A stretch of DNA of 40,308 nucleotides. Origin: a virus (Duplodnaviria; Heunggongvirae; Uroviricota; Caudoviricetes). The DNA lies in IMG/VR virus record IMGVR_UViG_2778261673_000007. One strand, given 5' to 3'. Under the pieces are notes generated by a model. It was given only the letters and a program-made list of their open reading frames with translations, ran no database searches and was not told where the DNA came from. A program made the position numbers and the translations under genes. Below are positions 1 through 40,308 of the stretch, one piece after another (positions within the stretch are counted from its first letter, which is position 1; every line of letters starts with the position of its first letter).

Positions 1-465
1 TCACTTTGATTCAATTTTGAAACTTTTTTTAACCACTAAAATCATGCAGCTAATCACTTCTGCAATGAGGTTAAGAGATAGCACGATAGCAAAAAGTTCT
101 AAAGCAGTAAATAGCTTGCCTTTAGAAGGGATAAATTCGTGCTGAGGATAATTTACTAGTGGTATGTCATAATTACGTAAATAGGGAAGGAAGATTGTTA
201 CTGCCAGACACATGACCAGTAATTTCAAATCTAATTCTAAACTATCTAAATAGTCCGTAAAGTCTGTGCTTTTCTCGCCCTTATTAATGACAGCCAAAAT
301 TCCGAAGATAACGGAGATACCTGCGGCAATACCTCCAAGTATTGAACCTATTACTCCAGCAGAAGCCTGCTCAAGTAAGGTATAAATGGTTTTATCAGTC
401 GATGCTAATGCTAAGCACAAAAAGAAGGTAGCTATAGCTTTAATCCAGACAGTTAGATTTTGCAT
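1..465 (-). CDS. Small integral membrane protein, about four predicted TM helices; downstream partner of the 298-aa gene (putative effector of a two-gene cargo module)
   Basis: Complete ORF with stop at 1-3; four hydrophobic stretches in the translation; 26-nt overlap with the upstream gene (440-465) suggests translational coupling; AT-rich relative to the phage structural genes. No family recognised. Confidence 0.5.
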   Translation of the reverse strand: MQNLTVWIKAIATFFLCLALASTDKTIYTLLEQASAGVIGSILGGIAAGISVIFGILAVINKGEKSTDFTDYLDSLELDLKLLVMCLAVTIFLPYLRNYDIPLVNYPQHEFIPSKGKLFTALELFAIVLSLNLIAEVISCMILVVKKSFKIESK

Positions 466-1336
466 TTTTGAACGTATACCTGTTTTGATGTAATGCTATG
501 ATCTCTTTAATATCATTTGCTGAGTAGCCATCAAGTTCAATTTCTGATATCTCACCTTCGATCAGCACGATTTTGGCTGTCTGATTACTGGATACCGTAG
601 TAGATTTTGACTTGAGTGTCTTACGTCCTTTAATCAACCATGACCCGCCACCATCTTTGACCCAGTCAACAAGAGTCTCAGCCCAATGAGAACCTTTGAG
701 TTTCAAATTGCCATCTTTGTTTTCAAAAATAGTGGTCACAGTATTTGCATTGGTATCTTTTTCAAGCTTCCGTAAATCATTGGTTAACGCTTGCTTACTG
801 CTTCCGAAGATATTCGGAGTAATCAGCGTAAAGCTGACTTTGTCGATAAATTGAAGCCTATGGTATTCTGACCAAAAATCTTCCATTTCAAGACAAGGCT
901 CTATAAATATTCTAAGTCCTAACTGAGCCAAATAGTCGTTATTGGCTAGATCTTCAAACGCTTTAGCAACTTGTTGCGCATCCTTGAAAACAGCGGTTTT
1001 CCTCTCAACCAGTAACACCTGCTCTACTTTGTCCCAAATCCATACGATAGGTGGATAGTTGTCTACATCGTACTCTCGAAAGTCTTTATCATGTCCTTTA
1101 ATCTTTTGCAGCTTTGATATGACTCCAGCCATAACACCATCAGTAGGTTTTATGCTCAATTTCAGGGTGTAACTAGTTTTCTTATGAACGGAAGGTGTTG
1201 ATGACGTCATGTGTAAATTTTTTGCAGCGATAACCATAGCATTTTCAAAATGAGAGATATCTTTCTGAACAGTTCCTTTCGAAAAGAGGTCTGGATCGCG
1301 CGGTCTCATTAACACACGTAAGGCATACAACTGCAT
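440..1336 (-). CDS. Hypothetical 298-aa cytoplasmic protein, first gene of an int-proximal two-gene cargo module
   Basis: ATG at 1334-1336 preceded by AGGAG with 8-nt spacing; no TM segments, no P-loop, no HExxH, no recognisable nucleotidyltransferase motif; AT-rich; promoter region upstream carries a LexA box. Confidence 0.55.
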   Translation of the reverse strand: MQLYALRVLMRPRDPDLFSKGTVQKDISHFENAMVIAAKNLHMTSSTPSVHKKTSYTLKLSIKPTDGVMAGVISKLQKIKGHDKDFREYDVDNYPPIVWIWDKVEQVLLVERKTAVFKDAQQVAKAFEDLANNDYLAQLGLRIFIEPCLEMEDFWSEYHRLQFIDKVSFTLITPNIFGSSKQALTNDLRKLEKDTNANTVTTIFENKDGNLKLKGSHWAETLVDWVKDGGGSWLIKGRKTLKSKSTTVSSNQTAKIVLIEGEISEIELDGYSANDIKEIIALHQNRYTFKNAKSNCLD

Positions 1337-1414
1337 AAGAAAACTCCTGTAAACTATTTGGTTTCATTATTCCATAAAACCAAGCACTTTCAAGAGCTTA
1401 ATTTTCTTTCAATT

Positions 1415-1430
1415 CTGTATGCATATACAG
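1415..1430. promoter_or_regulatory. LexA (SOS) box CTGTATGCATATACAG in the promoter region of the two-gene cargo module
   Basis: Perfect CTGT-N8-ACAG palindrome with AT-rich spacer, flanked by t...ta as in the E. coli consensus taCTGTatatatatACAGta; lies in the 115-bp gap between the int stop and the start of the 298-aa gene, near putative -35/-10 elements on the minus strand. Confidence 0.55.
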
Positions 1431-1451
1431 TATCATTCAATTTTGTAAAAT

Positions 1452-2579
1452 TCAAACCTTGATTTTTGCCCATTCCTTACCACGATCATCATGGTATTTA
1501 GCTGTCTGGTTAGGCGATTTATGTCCCAGAAGTTTTTGGGTGTCGACGCCCTGAGCTTCGTAAAGTCGCTCAGATAAAGATCTTTGTTCATGGAATGTGG
1601 CGGGCGAACCTTCACCCCAGTCAATGCCTGCTAAATCCCTCGCTTTACTGAAATTCATCGTCAATGTATTGGCTTTTACTTGCGCGCCACGTTCAGCCTG
1701 TGAAGTAGTACGAAAAAAATGTACAAGGTATGGGCTGACTGCATAGTCACGGCAGCGGGCTACTACATCGCGTAAACTCCAGTTAATTGCATTGAGGCGA
1801 AGGGAAAGCGGGATGGCGATTTTGCTCCCGGTTTTTTCTTGGATGACGTGAAGATGATCATCCCAAATATCGCTAAATTTCATACGTGAGATATCACCTA
1901 ACCGTTGGCCGGTAACCAGTGCTAACAGCATGGCATTCCCCATATAACGATGGCGGGCATCTGCGATATCAAAGATTTTTTGCCATTCTTCAAGACTTAA
2001 CCGTTGTCGGGTAATTTTTCTTCTGGGTTGTTTGGTTGCCAGTGCTGGATTATAGCCCGGAGGGACTTCCCCATAGTGTTGTGCCTCCTTGAATACATCA
2101 ATTAGAACGGAGCGGACTACTTGCGCCATCCTCGGTTGCCCGGCAGTGATATACTCGTCAAGTAATTGTGCTATATCCCTTACATCAACTGATGAAATTA
2201 ATTTCATTCCTGCTCGTTCCCTGAGCAAGGATACTGGTTTGGCTTTCTGTTTATAGGTGTTTAGCTTTATATCGCCACTTTCCAGTCTGTCATCCTGGAT
2301 TGCTTGATAGCGATCTAACCAGGTTGACGTTGTGATTGCTTTTCCTTTGCTGGTTGCGATCCTGTCACTGATAGCCAGAATCTGCCGGGTTCTTTGCTCA
2401 GCCAGGCGTGAATTTGCCTCAGTGGCAATAGCAATGGCTTCAGCTTCGTTTGTGCCTAAAGAATGAAACTTCCCGGTCACTGGATGTTTATATCGCCAAT
2501 AGACTTTATTTACTTTTCTACTATAAAGCGGATACAAGTTCGGGACTGAAACATTATTTTTACGTGGTCTGGCTGCCAT
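1452..2579 (-). CDS. intE: Tyrosine site-specific integrase, e14 IntE-like (375 aa)
   Basis: 375-aa ORF with the phage-integrase C-terminal catalytic region (R...HxxR...Y pattern near ...LGHKSPNQTAKYHD); followed on the same strand by an excisionase-like gene; element sits at icd as e14 does. Confidence 0.85.
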   Translation of the reverse strand: MAARPRKNNVSVPNLYPLYSRKVNKVYWRYKHPVTGKFHSLGTNEAEAIAIATEANSRLAEQRTRQILAISDRIATSKGKAITTSTWLDRYQAIQDDRLESGDIKLNTYKQKAKPVSLLRERAGMKLISSVDVRDIAQLLDEYITAGQPRMAQVVRSVLIDVFKEAQHYGEVPPGYNPALATKQPRRKITRQRLSLEEWQKIFDIADARHRYMGNAMLLALVTGQRLGDISRMKFSDIWDDHLHVIQEKTGSKIAIPLSLRLNAINWSLRDVVARCRDYAVSPYLVHFFRTTSQAERGAQVKANTLTMNFSKARDLAGIDWGEGSPATFHEQRSLSERLYEAQGVDTQKLLGHKSPNQTAKYHDDRGKEWAKIKV

Positions 2580-3525: not shown

Positions 3526-4350
3526 TCAGGCGGTGAAAGTACCAATAAAGGTTTCTACTTTGCTGTCTTTGAATTTCTCAACAAGCAGATCGCGAAATTC
3601 GTTAGCCATTTCTTCCTGCACCGCCTCCAGCTGAATAATGCGCAGAACAAGTACAGGACGATCGCCAGTGATAATGCTGAGGCGTAATTTAAAAGAACGT
3701 TCTTTCAGACCTTCAAACGGAACGCATTTAAATTCAAATGCCACTGGCATAATGTCTTTGGTCTTCGCTTCGACAGACTCCATCAGGGAGCGTTTGCCGC
3801 TGAAGTCATTGTCTTCAAAATCAGCAGTCTGGTTCGCTTCAATTGTGATTTTACGGATCGCCGCAGCCGCTTTGGTTGCCTGAATGGCGTCACCATTAGC
3901 ATCAAAGCCCACAAGGTTGTCGGCCCAGTCTTCAATCCATTCTGCCAGTGATTTCTGGGAGTTACGCTCGCCGTGAACAGACAACAGAGCAGAGAACGGT
4001 GCTGTCTTTTTCAGTTTGAGAGTGGCGGTGTTATCTGCGTGGCCTGGTTCATCAATAGTACCCAGGTTAAGCACACTGACGGCACGCATATTATCAGCAT
4101 CGATAAAGCAGCGGGTGCCTTCATCTGCAAGATCTTTAGAATAACGGGTAAAGTCATCAATGCTGGCAGTGGAAAGCGCACCACGGAAACGGAAGCGATT
4201 TAAATTAAATTTTTCCAGGTCATGAATGCGGAAATTCTCAGGCAATGCCACAGCATCGGCACCAATCTTACTGATAATTTCATTAACACCCTGAGCAGAA
4301 ATAAGGGCATGGATTTGATTAATTGCGGTTGCGTCTAAGTTCTGAGACAT
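3526..4350 (-). CDS. YfdQ-like DUF2303-family phage protein (274 aa)
   Basis: 274-aa ORF with GAGGA RBS; sequence and length recalled as matching the YfdQ family of the E. coli CPS-53 prophage early region; adjacent to the HD hydrolase as yfdQ-yfdR are. Confidence 0.6.
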
Positions 4351-4415
4351 AATAAGTCCTCACTATATAAAGATATTCAGTGATGAGATAAATAATCAGT
4401 TAATTAAAAACGATA

Positions 4416-4778
4416 TTAACGACCTGCTGCGCGGAGTTTTCCGTCAGGTTCACCGGCAAGAGTCAGTAACTGTCCCTGGTCTTCCTGCAGAATAGTCAGG
4501 CGACCACCGCGATTGACATACATCGGCGTTTCGGTGGTGTCTTCTTCGGAAATTTTCCCGCGGTTAGTCGGGCGAACATATGAGAGTTTGTGTTTGATTT
4601 TCACTCGGTTCTCATCAAACGGTTCGATTTCCAGGTTGAGTGAGACCTTACCTTTGGTTTTCGTGTTCATCACACCGGAAGCGACTTCACTGAGAACTGC
4701 GCCGATTTTGGTTTCAAATACGCCGCCGTCCAGCTCCCCGATAAATGCCTGCACATCAGTACTGCGTTCGCTAGCCAT
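4416..4778 (-). CDS. Hypothetical early-left-operon protein (about 121 aa; start at internal ATG with GGAG RBS)
   Basis: The ORF-track version (4416-5096) extends into GC-rich, non-protein-like sequence; a GGAG-ATG pair at 4776-4778 gives a compact protein with normal composition. Confidence 0.5.
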   Translation of the reverse strand: MASERSTDVQAFIGELDGGVFETKIGAVLSEVASGVMNTKTKGKVSLNLEIEPFDENRVKIKHKLSYVRPTNRGKISEEDTTETPMYVNRGGRLTILQEDQGQLLTLAGEPDGKLRAAGR

Positions 4779-4826
4779 TTTGCTGCTCCTCATCATATCG
4801 ACCCTGCAAGGCCGATTAGTTTCTCC

Positions 4827-4915
4827 ACAAAACAGAGAAGAACACCTGCGGTGGCAGCCGCCCGGATGGATTGGGTTATGAGCCCGTCGTCCGGTGATGC
4901 TCTTCTCTGTTTTGT
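4827..4915. repeat. 15-bp perfect inverted repeat (ACAAAACAGAGAAGA / TCTTCTCTGTTTTGT) enclosing a 59-nt GC-rich loop
   Basis: Arms at 4827-4841 and 4901-4915 read directly from the sequence; lies in a 470-bp stretch with no credible ORF. Confidence 0.45.
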
Positions 4916-5182
4916 AAAAAGGACGGTACCAGCCGGAAGCAAGGGTACAAACTGGTACCGCCAGGACTACACACAGCATAAAGTTGTGGTGCCGGGTGCC
5001 TCCCGGTGCCTGGCGAAGGTTGCACACCAGGCGGGTGGGTATCCACAGAAGGTCGACTGTCAGCCTCAACCTTAACCCGCGTGCGCTGAGCCGCATTCAC
5101 CACAACGCTAAGGATTCTCTCTGGTTGAAAATACTTAGCTGTTATGTGCCTGCTTTTAGCCACATCAGGCGAGGTGGACCTA

Positions 5183-5231
5183 GTTATTCCCCAACAACAA
5201 GGATTCGGTTAATCTGGTTATCCCCAACAAC
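5183..5231. promoter_or_regulatory. Two direct repeats GTTAT(T/C)CCCCAACAAC 34 bp apart, immediately upstream of the 5247 gene
   Basis: Copies at 5183-5198 and 5217-5231; positioned within about 50 bp of the start codon at 5247; candidate operator or UTR element. Confidence 0.35.
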
Positions 5232-5246
5232 GCAAAAGGAAAAGAA

Positions 5247-5681
5247 ATGTCCGGTAATATCTATACGCTGTACAAATCCCACTGTGAAAATGTTGGAAAG
5301 TATCGGGGCATTGAAATCAGTGGGGTAGTGCCATCAGTCGAAATAAGCAAAGTTGAATCAAGGGCAACATTACTTACTCTTTTGGACCTTGTCTTACATG
5401 AGCACCGGAAGAAATTCGGCACTCCCTATAATCAGTTGAATGGGAAAAAGGCTCTGGTTCACCTTATTCTGATGAAGCATCACTGGATGCCAAAACAGAT
5501 TAATGAGATGAAATTTGATGAACTTCTTCTTTCAATTCAGGATGAACTCACACTTGATAAAATAAGCGTAACCGCCCAGAAATTTTTAGATTATCGAGAC
5601 TGGAGATCACAAATTCATCACTTTGATGATTTTGACGAAAATGAATGGGATCCTAATTTGTCTGCACAATATCTAAAGTAA
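5247..5681 (+). CDS. Hypothetical 144-aa protein, oriented against the leftward early operon (possible lysogeny-expressed moron)
   Basis: ATG ORF with AAAGGAAAAG upstream; AT-rich; convergent with and overlapping the minus-strand small gene at 5653-5681; no family recognised. Confidence 0.5.
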   Translation: MSGNIYTLYKSHCENVGKYRGIEISGVVPSVEISKVESRATLLTLLDLVLHEHRKKFGTPYNQLNGKKALVHLILMKHHWMPKQINEMKFDELLLSIQDELTLDKISVTAQKFLDYRDWRSQIHHFDDFDENEWDPNLSAQYLK

Positions 5682-5859
5682 CATCCTGTGATAAAACCGT
5701 GATTTCCTGATCCAGTTTTTTTAAGGAGTCTATTGTTTCCTGTCGATAAGACAGCACTTCACGAAGCTGGTTTATAGCTGCCAGCTTCTTTGTCATCCAC
5801 TCATAAATTTCCTCATCTGTGTAGCCAGGCGCGACGATTTTGGGTTCTGTTTTGTGCAT
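5653..5859 (-). CDS. Hypothetical small protein (about 68 aa) at the head of the leftward operon
   Basis: Internal ATG (MHKTEPK) preceded by AGGAGATGTGAA; lies just downstream of the putative OL/pL region. Confidence 0.4.
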   Translation of the reverse strand: MHKTEPKIVAPGYTDEEIYEWMTKKLAAINQLREVLSYRQETIDSLKKLDQEITVLSQDVTLDIVQTN

Positions 5860-5918
5860 TTCACATCTCCTCAAGTTATCAGTTACTTGTTGATGGGGAC
5901 CAGATTGTTAAAGAGCTA

Positions 5919-5941
5919 AGCGTCCTGTAGGGCGCTTTTTT
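5919..5941 (+). terminator. Putative rho-independent terminator (short bulged GC stem followed by TTTTTT)
   Basis: AGCG(t)CC ... GGCGCT followed by a T6 run on the plus strand; would terminate transcripts of the 5247 gene. Confidence 0.35.
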
Positions 5942-6020
5942 GTTGCTAACGAATCATCCTGGACTTCATATGCCCCAGGCGGCTACTTCGTGGGCGTCCT
6001 GCCTGTTCGTTGTTTCGCTT

Positions 6021-6047
6021 GGGTACATTATGTATCTCAAAGGTACA
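6021..6047. promoter_or_regulatory. Putative OL operator half-sites (GGTACA motifs) left of the repressor gene
   Basis: GGTACATTATGTATC and AGGTACATTG share the GTACA half-site with the palindromes found between the repressor and cro genes. Confidence 0.35.
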
Positions 6048-6093
6048 TTGTCAAGTATAAAAAAACCTGCCGAAGCAGGTTCATAAACATTGA

Positions 6094-6768
6094 TTAGGCT
6101 TTGATTTTGTATCTTCTTGGTTTTCCTGAGAAAATCACTGTACCAATTATAGAGCAATTACCGTTGATCTTAATGTAAGGCTCAGGCCAGTTTGGGTTTA
6201 ACGCTTTGAGATAACGCTGTGTCCCATCTTCTATCAACCTTTTGAAGGTGGTTTCACCTGTATCGTGCATCAATGCAATAACGTCGTCACCGTGGCAGGC
6301 AGGTACTTCAGGATCGACAAAAATCATGTCTCCCGGGCGGTACTCATCAATCATTGAATCACCTATCACCCGCAAGATATAAGTCATTTCCCCACAGGGT
6401 ACAGGGCAGGGATACGTTTCTGCTGTGCTCAAATCAACCTCAGAATATCCAACTTCTTTCCATGCTCCGGCCTGTACCCATGATATGACAGGGACTAATG
6501 TGATTTGTTTATTAGTGATTGAAACATCAGGTTTTTTTGTGATGTTCGTTGTCTGGTGTTCTTGATCGAGCCATCCGACAGGCAGGTCGAAACATTTTTC
6601 GATGTGTCGTGCCATGCTGTCACCGATATTTTTAGTAGCACCATCTCCCATAAACCTGCTGGTCTGGGTTGGCTCGCGATCAATCATAGTGGCAAAGGAA
6701 GAATTCCCGCCAACACCATCTCTCAGTTTTCTGGCGTTAGACCGCCGGATGTCATGGATTGTTTTCAT
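6094..6768 (-). CDS. cohE: CI-like prophage repressor: N-terminal HTH, C-terminal S24 LexA-type self-cleaving peptidase domain
   Basis: 224 aa; C-terminal region contains the GDSM serine motif and a downstream Lys (TFKRL) typical of S24 peptidases; divergent from a Cro-like gene across an operator-rich intergenic region; size matches the e14 repressor. Confidence 0.8.
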   Translation of the reverse strand: MKTIHDIRRSNARKLRDGVGGNSSFATMIDREPTQTSRFMGDGATKNIGDSMARHIEKCFDLPVGWLDQEHQTTNITKKPDVSITNKQITLVPVISWVQAGAWKEVGYSEVDLSTAETYPCPVPCGEMTYILRVIGDSMIDEYRPGDMIFVDPEVPACHGDDVIALMHDTGETTFKRLIEDGTQRYLKALNPNWPEPYIKINGNCSIIGTVIFSGKPRRYKIKA

Positions 6769-6783
6769 AACGAAATTAAAACC

Positions 6784-6853
6784 CTTGTACCGCTAAGGTA
6801 CAAGTATCTTGAAGGTTCATTTCAATCATGTAATATGTACACCGGAGGTACAT
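6784..6853. promoter_or_regulatory. OR/pR region: palindromic operators CTTGTACC-N5-GGTACAAG and ATGTAC-N7-GTACAT with a TTGAAG-16-TAATAT promoter reading into cro
   Basis: Palindromes read directly (6784-6804 and 6835-6853); -35 TTGAAG at 6809-6814 and -10 TAATAT at 6831-6836; the second operator overlaps the -10. Confidence 0.5.
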
Positions 6854-6858
6854 ATTGT

Positions 6859-7059
6859 ATGAAAGCGTATTGGGACTCTTTAACCAAAGAACAGCAGGGC
6901 GAGTTGGCCGGAAAAGTTGGCTCAACACCTGGCTACTTACGGCTGGTTTTCAATGGCTATAAAAAAGCCAGTTTTGTGCTGGCTAAAAAACTTGAGCAAT
7001 GCACGTCAGGTGCAATTACGAAATCTGACTTAAGACCGGATATCTATCCGAAAGATTAG
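6859..7059 (+). CDS. croE: Cro-like small HTH regulator (66 aa)
   Basis: ATG at 6859 preceded by GGAGG; divergent from the repressor; small helix-turn-helix-like protein. Confidence 0.65.
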   Translation: MKAYWDSLTKEQQGELAGKVGSTPGYLRLVFNGYKKASFVLAKKLEQCTSGAITKSDLRPDIYPKD

Positions 7060-7090
7060 CAGAACACTTTCAATTTTTAACCACAGAACG

Positions 7091-7660
7091 ATGAGGCTAA
7101 TCGTGGGTAAGCATCACTGGAAAATAGAAAAACAGCCTGAGTGGTACGTGAAAGCTGTCAGAAAAACTATCGCGGCGTTGCCGGGTGGTTACGCTGAAGC
7201 GGCTGACTGGCTCGATGTAACAGAAAACGCTTTATTCAACCGCCTTCGTGCAGATGGCGATCAGATTTTCCCGCTGGGATGGGCAATGGTTTTACAGCGT
7301 GCTGGTGGCACTCACTTCATTGCTGATGCTGTGGCGCAGTCTGCAAATGGCGTCTTTGTGTCTCTTCCTGACGTCGAGGATGTGGACAACGCCGATATTA
7401 ACCAGCGTCTGCTGGAAGTCATTGAACAGATCGGCAGTTATTCAAAACAGATTCGTTCAGCAATCGAAGACGGTGTAGTGGAACCGCATGAGAAGACAGC
7501 AATTAACGACGAGCTGTATCTCTCAATTTCGAAGCTGCAGGAGCATGCAGCACTTGTCTACAAAATTTTTTGCATTTCAGAAAGTAATGACGCCCGCGAG
7601 TGTGCAGCTCCGGGCGTCGTGGCGTCGATTGCTTCTGGTTGTGGAGAAACTAACGCATGA
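7091..7660 (+). CDS. CII-like phage regulatory protein (YmfL-like, 189 aa)
   Basis: Position immediately after cro and size match the CII/CP76 regulatory proteins of lambdoid prophages; assignment by position and recalled family resemblance only. Confidence 0.5.
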
Positions 7661-37795: not shown

Positions 37796-38051
37796 TGTTT
37801 ACCTATAAATAACATTAAGTGACATTCTACAAGAGTAAGAAATTCATCTGAGTCAGAACAATCATTTTTATGTAGTTATGATACAGTGTATTTGTTACTG
37901 GTGAAGTAAAAATAAGAAACCCCGCTTTTGAATGCTGACGCGCTACGGTTTCATTGGATATTTTTTGTCTCTCCTCCATCCCGTTGGTGTTCTGTTTAGA
38001 CTGATAACTTGCTGTTTTAATTGATATTAGTTTCTTGCGCCGCCCAATCAT

Positions 38052-38077
38052 GGTTGGTGGGTTGGTGGGTTGGTGGG
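38052..38077. repeat. Tandem repeat (GGTTGGTG)x3
   Basis: Read directly, about 260 bp upstream of the GmrSD gene start. Confidence 0.5.
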
Positions 38078-38622
38078 AGTTAAATCCACATTGGTATGAA
38101 TAACATAGAATATGAATTAGTGTTTCAGAATTGCTTCAGCCATCACTTTTTAATACGTTCAATTTGAATGTTTATTTCCGAAACAATTTTTTCAGGTTTC
38201 AGTCCCTCGTTAGATTGCACAAAATCTCTAATTTGCATCATTCGATGTGCACAAATTTGTAATTCGCTATAAACACTTAGCTCGTCAGATTCATTTTGAG
38301 ATTGTTCACCTGTTTAAAATTCTACATAAGTATGTGGCGGATTGTGATAAACACGAGAAATCGGGGTTGGCCACCATTCCTCACCGGTCACTACGTCCGC
38401 ATCGAATAGTACAGTTTTGTCAATTTCCATTAATTTCTGGATAAGAACAGAAGTTTTCAAGCGAACCTCCATTTTGCCATAAAGTGGTTATCAAAACGCT
38501 ACGTAAACTATACAAAATCAGCGAGTTATGGTGAAGGTAAAAAAACAAGTTTAGATGTTCGTTAAGTATAAAATTGTTTTAATTCAATTGGATATAATAA
38601 TTTTCTAAATCTAATGCTGCGC

Positions 38623-38778
38623 CATATGGGTTGGACTGAAGCGGCTGACCTGATTGTTAAAGGTATGGAAGGCGCAATCAATGCCAAGACCGTAACTTAT
38701 GACTTCGAACGTCTGATGGAAGGCGCTAAGCTGCTGAAATGTTCAGAGTTTGGTGAAGCGATCATCGAAAACATGTAA
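38623..38778 (+). pseudogene. icd: Displaced 3' fragment of isocitrate dehydrogenase gene (last ~52 codons), marking the prophage-host junction
   Basis: Translation [51 protein letters not shown] matches the Icd C-terminus as recalled; homology begins abruptly after AT-rich sequence at about 38620; no upstream icd coding sequence present. Confidence 0.8.
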
Positions 38779-38800
38779 TCTCTCCATGTGTTAAATATTG

Positions 38801-38833
38801 AAACGGGCGTATAACACGCCCGTTGTTTTATTT
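38801..38833 (+). terminator. icd rho-independent terminator
   Basis: AAACGGGCGT-ataac-ACGCCCGTT followed by GTTTTATTT. Confidence 0.7.
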
Positions 38834-38880
38834 ATGTGGATATTATTAATAGCATATCGAGCATATTTATATGAAGCCCA

Positions 38881-39204
38881 TTACTTGAGCCCATATGGGC
38901 ATATTTTTATAATGCAACTATTATGTAAACATTTATTTGTTATTTTGCTTTCTCCTGGAGGACACTCTTGACTGCTTTTGAGTAAACTCCATAAATCCTT
39001 GTTGAATGGTGCGATGTGATAAATAGTAATAGGATATTCTTTATCCTTAAGGATAATACCAGACTTAACCGGTGTAAATATACTGCCAGGAGGGAGAAAT
39101 ATAGTAGATTGATACCAGATGATCATTTTCATATTACCCCATATGGCTGAAAAAGATATACCACATGTAGGTTGAATTACCGTGTCAATTACTATCCACT
39201 TCAT
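38881..39204 (-). CDS. iraM: IraM-like anti-adaptor protein (107 aa)
   Basis: 107-aa AT-rich ORF in the position downstream of icd/e14 where iraM lies in E. coli K-12; identification from recalled size and neighbourhood. Confidence 0.55.
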
Positions 39205-39664
39205 TTGTTATGTCTTATCCCACGGTATTTAATATGGTTCATTAGGATGTTTATTTCTTGATTTTGCATATGAGTATATTACCCCCCCCTCAAAAAAATA
39301 AATTAATTAAAATAATGGCTTATATAAAATAAAATTTAAAGCAAGGAATCTCAATGGATGTTAAACAAAATGAGATTTTGTGAAAGCAATAAATTATTGA
39401 CTTCGTTTTAGATTTGTTTAGCTATAATGTTATACATTCAAATGACTGAACATCCTGTAATTAAAACATAGCCTTTATGCTACTTTGTGCCAATTTGCTA
39501 AACATTATGGTTGCCTTTTTATATAACGATAATAATGAATATAAGCATGACATGAGAATAAGGTTTCAATTTTTGAGTTATATAGGAATGATTTAACCTG
39601 TTCCTGGCTAAAATACATATAACCGGATGATGACTAAACCAAAATACATGTGCGTTAAGTATTG

Positions 39665-39696
39665 AAACGGACGTGTGGCACGGCCGTTGTTTTTAT
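39665..39696 (+). terminator. Second, diverged copy of the icd terminator region (orphan)
   Basis: ATTGAAACGGACGTGTGGCACGGCCGTTGTTTTTAT is about 85 percent identical to the sequence at 38797-38833; no plus-strand gene upstream. Confidence 0.4.
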
Positions 39697-39903
39697 AAAT
39701 ATGTTAACCGTTATAAAATAACGTATCAAAAGTCAAGTGATCACATTTCAAATATCAAGTTGATAGTATTAGTCTGGTGATTATTTATGGGTGACAATAA
39801 AAAGACAGTATTAATCATCCATAGAGATAGTCTCTGCACTTTTATTTCCATTATGCTAATGCCTTACTGAATTATGAAGCATTTCTTAAGTATCCAACTT
39901 TAG

Positions 39904-40308
39904 CTAGATTAATGGTTTATTATTTTCTACATCTTCAATATATAAAAGCGTATTATCAATGGCGTAGTAACTGCGTTTGTTATGATTAACATCAGTAACC
40001 CACCGGAAAACGCCCGCGCCTGCCAGTGTTGAACAGTATTCCCGAAATGTAGATTTTCCGCAAATATGAAGCAATGCGGCCTCTTTTATTTTAGCAGGGT
40101 TCTTGGTCGTACTAACTTTTAACAGGTTCCTGGTTCCTCTTAATAACAAAACCGTATCATCGTGAGTAATAATTCTGATGTTATCCGTAGCCAGATAATA
40201 AATGTAATGTGCAATACGGTGATGTTTTAATTCTGAATAAAACCAGGAGAAGTTTTGCTCTTTTCTCACTTGCTCAAACATCTTTTGAAAAACAACGACC
40301 TGATCCAT
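39904..40308 (-). CDS. ycgX: YcgX-like DUF1398 protein (134 aa)
   Basis: 134-aa ORF with ATG at the window edge (40306-40308); size and position next to iraM match K-12 ycgX by recall. Confidence 0.55.
   Translation of the reverse strand: MDQVVVFQKMFEQVRKEQNFSWFYSELKHHRIAHYIYYLATDNIRIITHDDTVLLLRGTRNLLKVSTTKNPAKIKEAALLHICGKSTFREYCSTLAGAGVFRWVTDVNHNKRSYYAIDNTLLYIEDVENNKPLI

Follow-up and report, generated by a model that had tools for sequence, protein, structure and literature searches.

The convergent gene pair of the cassette at positions 5178 to 5947

We analyzed a stretch of viral DNA of 40,308 nucleotides (IMG/VR record IMGVR_UViG_2778261673_000007), here called the window, which represents a lambdoid prophage or phage and is 98.8% identical to Shigella phage SfIV over positions 4400 to 6900. 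The subject of this study is ORF144, an open reading frame (ORF) of 144 amino acids on the plus strand (5247 to 5681, with the ATG at 5247 and the stop at 5681), which corresponds to SfIVp36 and is the large gene of a two-gene cassette. A Shine-Dalgarno sequence, AGGA, lies at 5237 to 5240, 6 nucleotides (nt) ahead of the ATG. ORF144 is the sole plus-strand gene from cro to the integrase end, its neighbors all being encoded on the minus strand, and its GC content is 38.2%, compared with 49.4% for the window and 53% for the structural region. Its 3′ end shares 29 nt (5653 to 5681) with ORF68, a convergent small gene on the minus strand (5653 to 5859), which encodes an acidic protein of 68 amino acids with a predicted coiled coil and is the first ORF behind the early leftward promoter pL. 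The sequence-only reading of this DNA had described an AT-rich, counter-oriented gene of 144 amino acids inside the leftward early operon, overlapping the 3′ end of a small convergent gene, and the ORF, its strand, the position of pL, the base composition, and the overlap all bear this description out. The small gene, however, had been treated as an ordinary member of the pL operon and is actually a conserved partner of ORF144.

Family membership and predicted structure of ORF144

ORF144 is a real, conserved gene. The family model NF033230 (“ECs1072 family phage-associated protein”) scores it at 155.9 bits against a cutoff of 70, with residues 4 to 144 aligned to positions 2 to 142 of 142, and phrog_5286 matches it with an E value of 7.2e-90 over positions 1 to 144 of 144. 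Both are name-only families (“hypoth_equivalog,” “unknown function”), and no functional study of ECs1072, WP_000016389, phrog_5286, or STMMW_20121 was found in the literature. An exhaustive HMMER search collected 65 family representatives across Enterobacterales at the 50% identity level, nearly all of them 145 to 155 amino acids long, from Escherichia, Salmonella, Enterobacter, Proteus, Providencia, Erwinia, Hafnia, Xenorhabdus, Yersinia, Pectobacterium, and Rouxiella. The conserved residues of the family are L46, L50, R54, G66, A69, H72, W80, and W134. Compared with the Escherichia albertii copy, ORF144 shows a ratio of nonsynonymous to synonymous substitution rates (dN/dS) of 0.22 at a dS of 0.76, indicating purifying selection; the amino acid identity in this comparison is 72% for ORF144 versus 98% for its partner and the flanks, so that ORF144 is diverging much faster.

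The AlphaFold2 model of ORF144, built from a 24-sequence alignment, reaches a predicted local distance difference test score of 87.7 and a predicted template modeling score of 0.84. The predicted fold is all-helical, with two long N-terminal helices followed by a small helical domain. Foldseek searches with two AlphaFold2 models against the PDB and with one against BFVD gave no match with an E value below 0.5 or a template modeling (TM) score above 0.31, the best E values being about 0.7 to 0.9. The fold matches to Bcl-2/BFL1, FAT-domain, and HEPN proteins are helical-bundle noise. An assignment of ORF144 as a HEPN-type toxin was rejected, with TM scores of at most 0.31, probabilities of at most 0.12, and E values above 2; furthermore, the Rx4-6H motif is not conserved, R54 and H72 being 18 residues apart.

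The profile search of PDB sequences with the ORF144 family also returned nothing, the top hit being myoglobin with an E value of 0.8. Scans of ORF144, ORF68, and distant members against Pfam, NCBIfam, and PADLOC recovered the name-only family alone, and PADLOC-DB 2.0, which includes Rex, Abi, and PD-type systems, yielded no family at an E value of 0.1 or below for ORF144, ORF68, or YfdP. ORF144 likewise has no Pfam match at this threshold, SieB (Pfam ID PF14163) included, and the SieB protein that neighbors the Yersinia homologue scores 8e-20. The predicted protein is soluble and acidic (isoelectric point of 6.4) and has no transmembrane segment, the maximum of the 19-residue Kyte-Doolittle window being 0.84; neither a secretion signal nor an enzyme motif was found in it. 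ORF144 therefore lies outside the SieB, Rex, BstA, and PADLOC families and outside HEPN. A match to a standard lytic-cycle phage protein, the outcome that the sequence-only reading had named as speaking against it, was found in neither the homology nor the structure searches, and no lytic-function family matches ORF144.

ORF68 homologues and the gene overlap

ORF68 matches phrog_1744 with an E value of 8e-35, the alignment starting from the ATG at 5859, and has a dN/dS of 0.05 over its first 48 codons. Its N-terminal motif, EPxxxxPG...E(L/I)xxW(L/M), reads EPKIVAPGYTDEEIYEWM in the window. Homologues are found as small convergent ORFs at 10 or more other loci. Apart from the exceptions weighed below, the distant loci reached via the large protein carry a convergent ORF of 79 to 117 amino acids with the motif EPYFxNPGxxxxELEDWL, followed by a predicted coiled coil. 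Partner-bearing loci were seen in Proteus, Rouxiella, Yersinia, Erwinia, Hafnia, Xenorhabdus, Pectobacterium, and E. albertii as well as in prophages Sakai Sp4 and ST64B, and the partner is present yet unannotated in Yersinia (locus L006 of our comparison set), Pectobacterium (L016), and Sakai Sp4. The reverse search with the small-protein profile gave 138 clusters, all named “hypothetical”; in the three that were checked (Salmonella, Klebsiella, and Serratia), the small gene lies beside a convergent, overlapping ORF of the large family (E values of 1e-42 to 1e-56). We consider it rather probable that ORF144 and ORF68 are functionally coupled.

The gene overlap of several homologues contains the palindrome TGGGATCCCA (L028, 2849 to 2858; L014, 4409 to 4418; L012, 4403 to 4412; L022, 3774 to 3783; L023, 3705 to 3714), which encodes W-D-P on both strands; in the large protein this includes the invariant W134, and in the small protein it belongs to the FPWDP motif. 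In the window, positions 5646 to 5653 hold TGGGATCC only, and ORF68 ends just before this site, without the FPWDP motif.

Boundaries and predicted expression signals of the cassette

The pair forms a cassette with defined boundaries and predicted terminators. It spans positions 5178 to 5947, with a GC content of 40.0% versus 49.4% for the window. The homology to SfV and e14 ends at 5177/5178 and restarts at 5945 to 5948; both have the two flanks in common with the window at 90 to 98% identity and lack 5178 to 5947.

The head of the cassette (5178 to 5231, plus strand), which is absent from SfV and e14, is the putative promoter region and carries both direct repeats. The direct repeats that the sequence-only reading had seen ahead of the gene could thus be traced as two copies, and they are conserved in relatives. 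Copy 1, TTATTCCCCAACAAC (5184 to 5198, plus strand), overlaps the predicted −35 element and is conserved in L018, L019, L025, and L026, and copy 2, TTATCCCCAACAAC (5218 to 5231, plus strand), lies in the left arm of an inverted repeat and in the CA-rich 5′ untranslated region. The common core is TTAT(T)CCCCAACAAC, with the two copies being 33 bp apart. Two matches per 40 kb are unremarkable by themselves (1.0 expected; 24 of 100 shuffles reach 2); however, E. albertii, a 55%-identical homologue, and two prophages with other cargo all retain the repeats. ACAAC-type motifs about 15 to 25 nt upstream of the start codon recur in distant homologues.

A consensus sigma-70 scan found no site upstream of ORF144 on the plus strand. 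The top plus-strand candidate of a weight-matrix scan of 4780 to 5250, with a score of 7.3, is a predicted promoter at 5187 to 5215 (−35 element TTCCCC at 5187 to 5192, a 17-nt spacer, and −10 element TAATCT at 5210 to 5215), from which transcription is predicted to start near 5222. In position it corresponds to TTCTCC-17-TGtTATCTT ahead of the homologues from Yersinia and Pectobacterium, and L019 has retained the candidate.

Two terminators are predicted for the ORF144 transcript. A terminator-like hairpin lies inside ORF68 (5763 to 5788, plus strand), where the opposite strand encodes KKLAAINQL. Hairpins at the equivalent position are found in L014 (4485 to 4507), L003 (5479 to 5501), and L012 (4479 to 4501) from Xenorhabdus, Proteus, and Hafnia, and on the opposite strand they code for the K-x-K-A-A-L-x-E-Q-L motif conserved in the small protein, so that the same DNA appears to serve as the terminator of one gene and as a motif of the other. 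The strong intrinsic terminator at 5918 to 5937 (plus strand), AAGCGTCCTGTAGGGCGCTT followed by TTTTTG, closes the counter-oriented unit before pL and cI and is not predicted to act as a terminator on the minus strand. Altogether, 11 terminator-like sites are predicted on both strands of 4300 to 7200, versus 2.7 expected. We also noted a weak minus-strand terminator-like hairpin inside ORF144 (5563 to 5578), 75 nt past the ORF68 stop, which mirrors the ORF68-internal hairpin; none like it was seen in the distant homologues checked.

The cargo is bracketed by an inverted repeat of about 20 bp, the right arm of which, CTTGTTGATGGGGACCAGATT (5886 to 5906, minus strand), is complementary to 5211 to 5231 and lies upstream of the ORF68 ribosome-binding site. 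The predicted head-tail duplex has an energy of −25 kcal/mol and a z-score of −3.9. Bracketing repeats are also found in L025 (1533 to 1554 and 2088 to 2112) and L026, with duplexes of −18 to −30 kcal/mol across the three cassettes. A cassette-specific covariation of head and tail was not supported, the cross-pairing energies being about equal to the cognate ones. The inverted repeat could serve in pairing the 5′ end with the 3′ end of either long transcript, could represent facing promoter-like elements ((T/C)AATCTGG...), or could mark the sites of cassette exchange.

An exchangeable cargo slot

Loci L025 and L026 match positions 5100 to 5231 at 96 to 98% identity and diverge at 5232. These two E. 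coli prophages have the same head and tail and, at the same offset, a different plus-strand cargo ORF without a small partner (L025, 1571 to 2086, 171 amino acids; L026, 1571 to 2074, 167 amino acids). The tail (5900 to 6014), including the terminator at 5918 to 5937, is kept with the other cargo, and there the terminator lies directly 3′ of the cargo stop codon. As head and tail are common to other cargo, the repeats and the terminator seem to belong to a reusable expression slot, with the coupling of ORF144 to ORF68 being specific to this cargo.

SfV carries the unrelated leftward gene orf33 in the slot (L002, 3980 to 4276) and e14 the unrelated convergent pair ymfI/ymfJ (L008, 1930 to 2517). 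At least four other cargos are found in the slot, none with a Pfam or PADLOC match. We tested whether YmfI/YmfJ of e14 or the SfV orf33 product are diverged homologues of the ORF144/ORF68 pair and found no similarity; the 171- and 167-amino-acid cargo proteins gave no significant matches to SieB or known defense proteins.

Polarity relative to lytic operons

The window has an immunity region of the e14/SfV type. A cI-type repressor of the YmfK/LexA family with a Peptidase_S24 domain is encoded at 6094 to 6768 on the minus strand, with a terminator at 6082 to 6063, and cro lies at about 6859 to 7059 on the plus strand. The 17-bp cI operator, TGTAyC-N5-rGGTACA, occurs in three copies at oR (6786 to 6852), between cI and cro, and two further operators at 6011 to 6029 and 6031 to 6047, with repeat families common to oR, constitute oL. 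The near-consensus promoter pL (6054 to 6027, minus strand; TTGACA at 6054 to 6049, a 16-nt spacer, and CATAAT at 6032 to 6027) overlaps oL and lies just past the cI terminator. Due to this location, the pL transcript would cross the small ORF first and then ORF144 in antisense.

The gene pair is found in three lytic operons, namely, pL, pR, and the Q-to-holin region. The pL context, next to the repressor, is that of the window and of E. albertii, Yersinia, and Pectobacterium (L006/7, L016, and L018). In the pR context, the pair lies between cII and the replication gene of Sakai Sp4, the source of the eponymous ECs1072, which is now ECs_5703. The Q-to-holin context, between the late-gene antiterminator Q and the holin gene, is represented by Proteus, Rouxiella, Hafnia, Xenorhabdus, Salmonella, Klebsiella, Serratia, ST64B, and KPP5665-2 (L003 to L005, L012 to L015, L020 to L024, L028, and L029). 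The polarity is constant in all three, with the small gene co-directional with the operon and the large gene opposed to it. One Erwinia pair lies in a region unlike a prophage, where the two genes do not overlap.

The cassette occurs in 408 of 5426 complete E. coli genomes (7.5%). Conflict genes were seen near cassettes of the late region, namely, SIR2 with DUF87/HerA (L004, 6892 to 9674) and a PemK toxin (L014, 5102 to 5503), and Acb2/Tad1-like antidefense genes follow the lysis cassette in L005 (1042 to 1278), L014 (2140 to 2364), and L022 (6475 to 6735).

Expression of the ST64B homologue

In ST64B, the pair sits between sb49 and the holin gene sb51, the large ORF being unannotated in AY055382 and the small one being sb50. 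The equivalents in Salmonella Typhimurium D23580 are STMMW_20121 (2090066 to 2090500) and STMMW_20131 (2090430 to 2090789), and the two pairs agree exactly in the 435-nt large gene, the 71-nt overlap, and the 161-nt gap to the holin. The ST64B homologue is found on at least 1000 Salmonella contigs.

By strand-resolved RNA sequencing and differential RNA sequencing, Owen et al. (2020, PMC7067206) described STMMW_20121 as being transcribed in almost all of 17 conditions from its own promoter and transcription start site, antisense to lytic genes, and named it, with its function unknown, among the candidates for an accessory or regulatory role. Its level is 61 to 269 transcripts per million (TPM) in 16 of the 17 conditions and 4.9 TPM in late stationary phase, a level similar to that of cI and bstA of BTP1, and the adjacent lysis genes stay under about 7 TPM without induction, with 0.3 to 7 TPM for the holin gene (Table S5 of PMC7067206). 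In macrophages, STMMW_20121 is at 80 TPM. Peroxide and nitric oxide, which induce ST64B, lower STMMW_20121 from 269 TPM (InSPI2) to 113 and 105 TPM, and under the same two conditions STMMW_20131 rises from 108 TPM (InSPI2) to 148 and 258 TPM (PMC7067206). In a microarray study of Sakai, ECs1072 changes by −2.1-fold at the growth transition of an uninduced culture.

As annotated, sb50/STMMW_20131 has an extra stretch of about 100 nt ahead of the true small-ORF start. A pR′/tR′-like pair lies directly upstream of this start in ST64B (L028, 3068 to 3205, minus strand), composed of the strong promoter TTGAAA-16-TATGAT and then a terminator-like hairpin. Because promoter and hairpin are inside the annotated ORF, the STMMW_20131 reads in lysogeny may partly represent a short, terminated leader RNA.

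Expression in lysogeny from an own promoter is therefore supported by the literature for the homologue and, by homology, for ORF144. The suggestion of the sequence-only reading that the gene is expressed in lysogens stands in this form, as observed for STMMW_20121 of ST64B and carried over to the window. Overall, it is highly probable that ORF144 is a real gene with a transcription unit of its own that is expressed in lysogeny.

Genes and RNA elements around the cassette

The leftward content of the pL operon consists of the CPS-53-type genes yfdP, yfdQ (DUF2303), and yfdR. The next protein gene of the operon beyond the cassette is yfdP (4416 to 4778, minus strand), matched by YfdP (Pfam ID PF27127) in homologous loci and followed by yfdQ (3526 to 4350, minus strand). 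From pL, yfdP can be reached only by antisense transcription across ORF144.

The leader of the pL transcript (5948 to 6014, minus strand) lies outside the cassette. SfV, e14, and other E. coli prophages share this block, which is kept even in Yersinia and Pectobacterium phages whose operators differ. It contains one 5-bp stem with compensatory changes in six sequences, with an unremarkable fold z-score of −0.95. The leader may be a cis-acting processing element or, because no N-like gene follows pL in the window, a cis-acting antitermination (put/nut-like) element.

Directly left of the cassette, inside the conserved block 4780 to 5177, lies an STnc100-like small RNA element (4914 to 5136, minus strand). 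It matches Rfam RF02076 (STnc100) over the full model length with 43.1 bits against a gathering score of 47 (E value of 1.2e-7), and the Rfam scan of the whole window at the gathering threshold gave no matches. The block is found in 2817 of 5426 complete E. coli genomes and is annotated variously as ymfH (e14), as a frameshifted pseudogene (PGAP), or as the N-terminal extension of SfIVp34/SfIVp35. These coding annotations are probably artifacts over a small-RNA gene. STnc100 has been related to the PasD small RNAs in a 2026 preprint. Between the 3′ end of the element and yfdP, we observed a 25-nt inverted repeat (4827 to 4851 and 4891 to 4915) with 84% complementarity and a 39-nt loop, which may be a terminator or processing site of the small RNA.

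At a larger scale, the ends of the window (1 to 1500 and 38000 to 40308) are very AT-rich, with a GC content of 30 to 39%. The SfIV integrase is flanked by gtr O-antigen modification genes, which may explain this composition.

A proposed lysogeny-expressed cassette switched by its orientation

The reading that we favor, at evenly balanced confidence, is that ORF144 and ORF68 form a lysogeny-expressed accessory cassette with a role in phage conflict, the convergent layout of which switches ORF144 off at induction. ORF144 would be the large gene of a self-contained mobile two-gene “moron” (5178 to 5947) placed head-on to pL and equipped with a weak predicted promoter, a ribosome-binding site, and the two plus-strand terminators. 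In a lysogen, cI would shut off pL, ORF144 would be made from its own promoter, and the protein would accumulate. Upon induction, pL (elsewhere pR or the Q-modified pR′) would first express the small protein, since ORF68 as the first gene behind the lytic promoter is expected to be made mainly after induction. Polymerases from pL would collide head-on with ORF144 transcription and produce antisense RNA, lowering ORF144 expression and completing a toggle between the large protein in lysogeny and the small protein in lytic growth. In the lysogen, the large protein might counter superinfecting phages or further mobile elements; once the prophage itself enters lytic growth, the small protein might modulate or neutralize it, which would provide self-immunity. 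In this chain, we infer the promoter position in the window, the repression by convergent transcription, the interaction of the two proteins, and the antiphage role.

The phage-conflict role is suggested by the slot itself, as the region from cI to the early-left genes is a known hotspot for lysogen-expressed abortive infection genes (rexAB and bstA), by the Yersinia locus, where sieB adjoins the large gene on the same strand, by the fast divergence of ORF144, and by the exchangeable cargo. The exclusion phenotype that the sequence-only reading had associated with such genes is nevertheless a tentative assignment for ORF144, which we regard as possible but doubtful. With similar reserve, the pair might be a thus far unrecognized two-component prophage defense system with built-in self-immunity, whose new-fold sensor or effector is made only while the prophage is silent. 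It is just as speculative that, within such a system, the convergent layout would be the disarming switch and the inverted repeats together with head and tail would mark an exchangeable cargo slot.

Several observations weigh against the favored explanation. No sequence or structure link of ORF144 to any defense, exclusion, toxin, or regulator family was found. The expression of ORF144 in the window is read from the homologue, and the candidate ORF144 promoter is weak, its score not being above background. The interval of the small gene in ST64B also has 23 to 258 TPM in lysogeny, with 23 to 130 TPM for STMMW_20131 without induction (PMC7067206); part of this may come from the short leader RNA, and the restriction of the small protein to lytic growth is thereby less certain. 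The polarity rule is based on roughly three to five independent insertion contexts, corresponding to a chance of about 1 in 8 to 1 in 16. Finally, the pairing is frequent but not strict: L019 carries only the large gene, and phages SKA5 and 118970_sal3 have the small gene with only the last approximately 66 codons of the large one.

One of the other explanations is a prophage-internal regulator, by which the cassette would stabilize lysogeny or time the lytic program of its own phage. Head-on transcription and antisense overlap would then damp leaky read-through from pL, pR, or pR′, and, up to the point at which induction takes over, the large protein would counteract the small early or late protein or a step of antitermination. 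Indeed, the cassette always lies directly behind a lytic promoter or an antitermination-subject terminator (pL, after cII in Sp4, and after Q in at least eight phages), promoter and terminator lie directly upstream of the small ORF in ST64B, the small-only phages suggest a lytic role of the small gene by itself, and Owen et al. left “regulatory” as one of two options for the homologue. We still regard this explanation as unlikely: the close relatives (SfV, e14-type phages, and phages with other cargo) manage without the cassette, which weakens a core regulatory role, the Erwinia copy lies outside a recognizable prophage, and no DNA-binding or RNA-binding domain was detected. Slightly less probable again is a host-directed lysogenic conversion factor, which would alter host physiology or virulence without any phage-phage role and for which the small gene would be a mere neighbor sharing its 3′ end. 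In the SfIV genome paper, ORF-35 and ORF-36 were put forward as candidates for a role in virulence, and the expression of the Salmonella homologue in infection-relevant conditions and macrophages and the response of ECs1072 in Sakai at the growth transition would fit such a factor. However, ORF144 is predicted to be cytoplasmic and lacks a secretion signal, a transmembrane segment, and an enzyme motif, the family is found in plant, insect, and enteric bacteria alike, and the polarity-locked pairing in three operon contexts would be left unexplained.

The convergent arrangement also brings to mind a toxin-antitoxin-like addiction or abortive module, in which one protein would be toxic and neutralized by the other or by the antisense overlap of the mRNAs, stabilizing the prophage or killing infected cells. 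The convergent mRNAs are estimated to overlap by 110 to 140 nt and share the terminator in antisense, resembling the convergent type I system par/Fst; in addition, a free-standing pair exists in the Erwinia chromosome, and toxin-antitoxin genes lie near some loci, such as PemK in L014. We consider such a module improbable, as both single-gene states occur (L019 on the one hand and SKA5 and 118970_sal3 on the other), which means that an antidote relationship is not strict and weakens strict antidote or addiction models. Moreover, both proteins are acidic and soluble without similarity to any toxin or antitoxin, and the HEPN-like fold matches are noise without a conserved Rx4-6H motif. That ORF144 is non-functional, being either a spurious or decaying ORF or an ordinary lytic gene that happens to be inverted, is very improbable and already largely refuted. 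Many database copies are truncated or frameshifted (P0002 to P0004, P0006 to P0009, P0013, and P0014), and the neighboring annotated ORFs SfIVp35 and ymfH look spurious, but ORF144 is under purifying selection, its length and motifs are conserved across orders of divergence, its predicted fold is confident, its homologue shows high transcription in lysogeny from a promoter of its own, and ORF144 matches no family with a lytic function.

Comparison with known systems

The closest described counterpart of the favored cassette is the ST64B pair STMMW_20121/STMMW_20131, which belongs to both protein families (profile E values of 2e-45 and 8e-33) and shows the same convergent arrangement with overlapping 3′ ends and the large gene directed against the phage operon. 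It differs in that the large protein is only about 32% identical to ORF144, the pair lies between a late-region gene and the holin gene instead of behind pL, the overlap is 71 nt long, and the small protein has a C-terminal FLWDPSPL extension absent from ORF68. The entries NF033230 and PHROG 5286, of which ORF144 is a full-length member, give no partner, polarity, or expression data.

The systems rexAB of lambda, sieB/esc of P22, and bstA/aba of BTP1 occupy the same hotspot beside the repressor, are expressed in lysogens like the ST64B homologue, and likewise need to spare the lytic growth of their own prophage. In contrast, rexAB, sieB, and bstA have no sequence or fold similarity to ORF144. 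The genes rexAB and bstA run in the direction of cI and are transcribed from the cI promoter, whereas ORF144 is directed against both cI and pL, with a separate predicted promoter. SieB and RexB reside in the membrane, unlike the soluble ORF144 product. The e14 genes ymfI/ymfJ of E. coli K-12 are found in the identical slot with the same flanks and are also a convergent overlapping pair (113 amino acids rightward and 102 amino acids leftward), but have no detectable sequence similarity to ORF144 or ORF68.

Like the classical morons (Hendrix/Juhala; HK97 gp15 and lambda bor/lom), the cassette has a predicted promoter and terminator of its own and a deviant GC content, is missing from sibling phages, and has an ST64B homologue that is expressed in lysogens. 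It differs from them in being composed of two convergent genes, one of which is given to the transcript of the host operon, and in carrying the predicted terminator of one within the coding sequence of the other. The 3′ ends of the convergent transcripts of par/Fst from pAD1 also overlap around a terminator, and the BTP1 antisense RNA STnc6030 demonstrates that antisense transcription in lytic operons can mediate exclusion; in contrast to both, the cassette encodes conserved proteins on both strands. ORF144 would thus work like a moron while being located where abortive infection genes sit.

Implications for prophage accessory genes

Thus far, the gene had been cataloged by name only, and its ST64B homologue had been flagged from transcriptomics. 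To this we add the conservation of the partner, the constant polarity across three operon contexts, the predicted terminator embedded in the coding sequence of the partner, the exchangeable slot of head, cargo, and tail, and the absence of a structural relative. Besides being common in E. coli, the cassette is found in Klebsiella, Proteus, Yersinia, Serratia, and Xenorhabdus prophages, and, in lysogeny, the only homologue for which transcript levels are available ranks with the most strongly expressed genes of its prophage. Despite this abundance, neither protein has a Pfam family or a structural relative. The fixed polarity in three unrelated operon contexts suggests a design principle by which an accessory gene is tied to the lysis-lysogeny state purely by its place of insertion and its orientation. 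Should the two genes be a true pair of defense and self-immunity, they would represent a new family and a new regulatory logic for prophage-encoded immunity; should they be a regulator, they would represent a portable module tuning lytic promoters.

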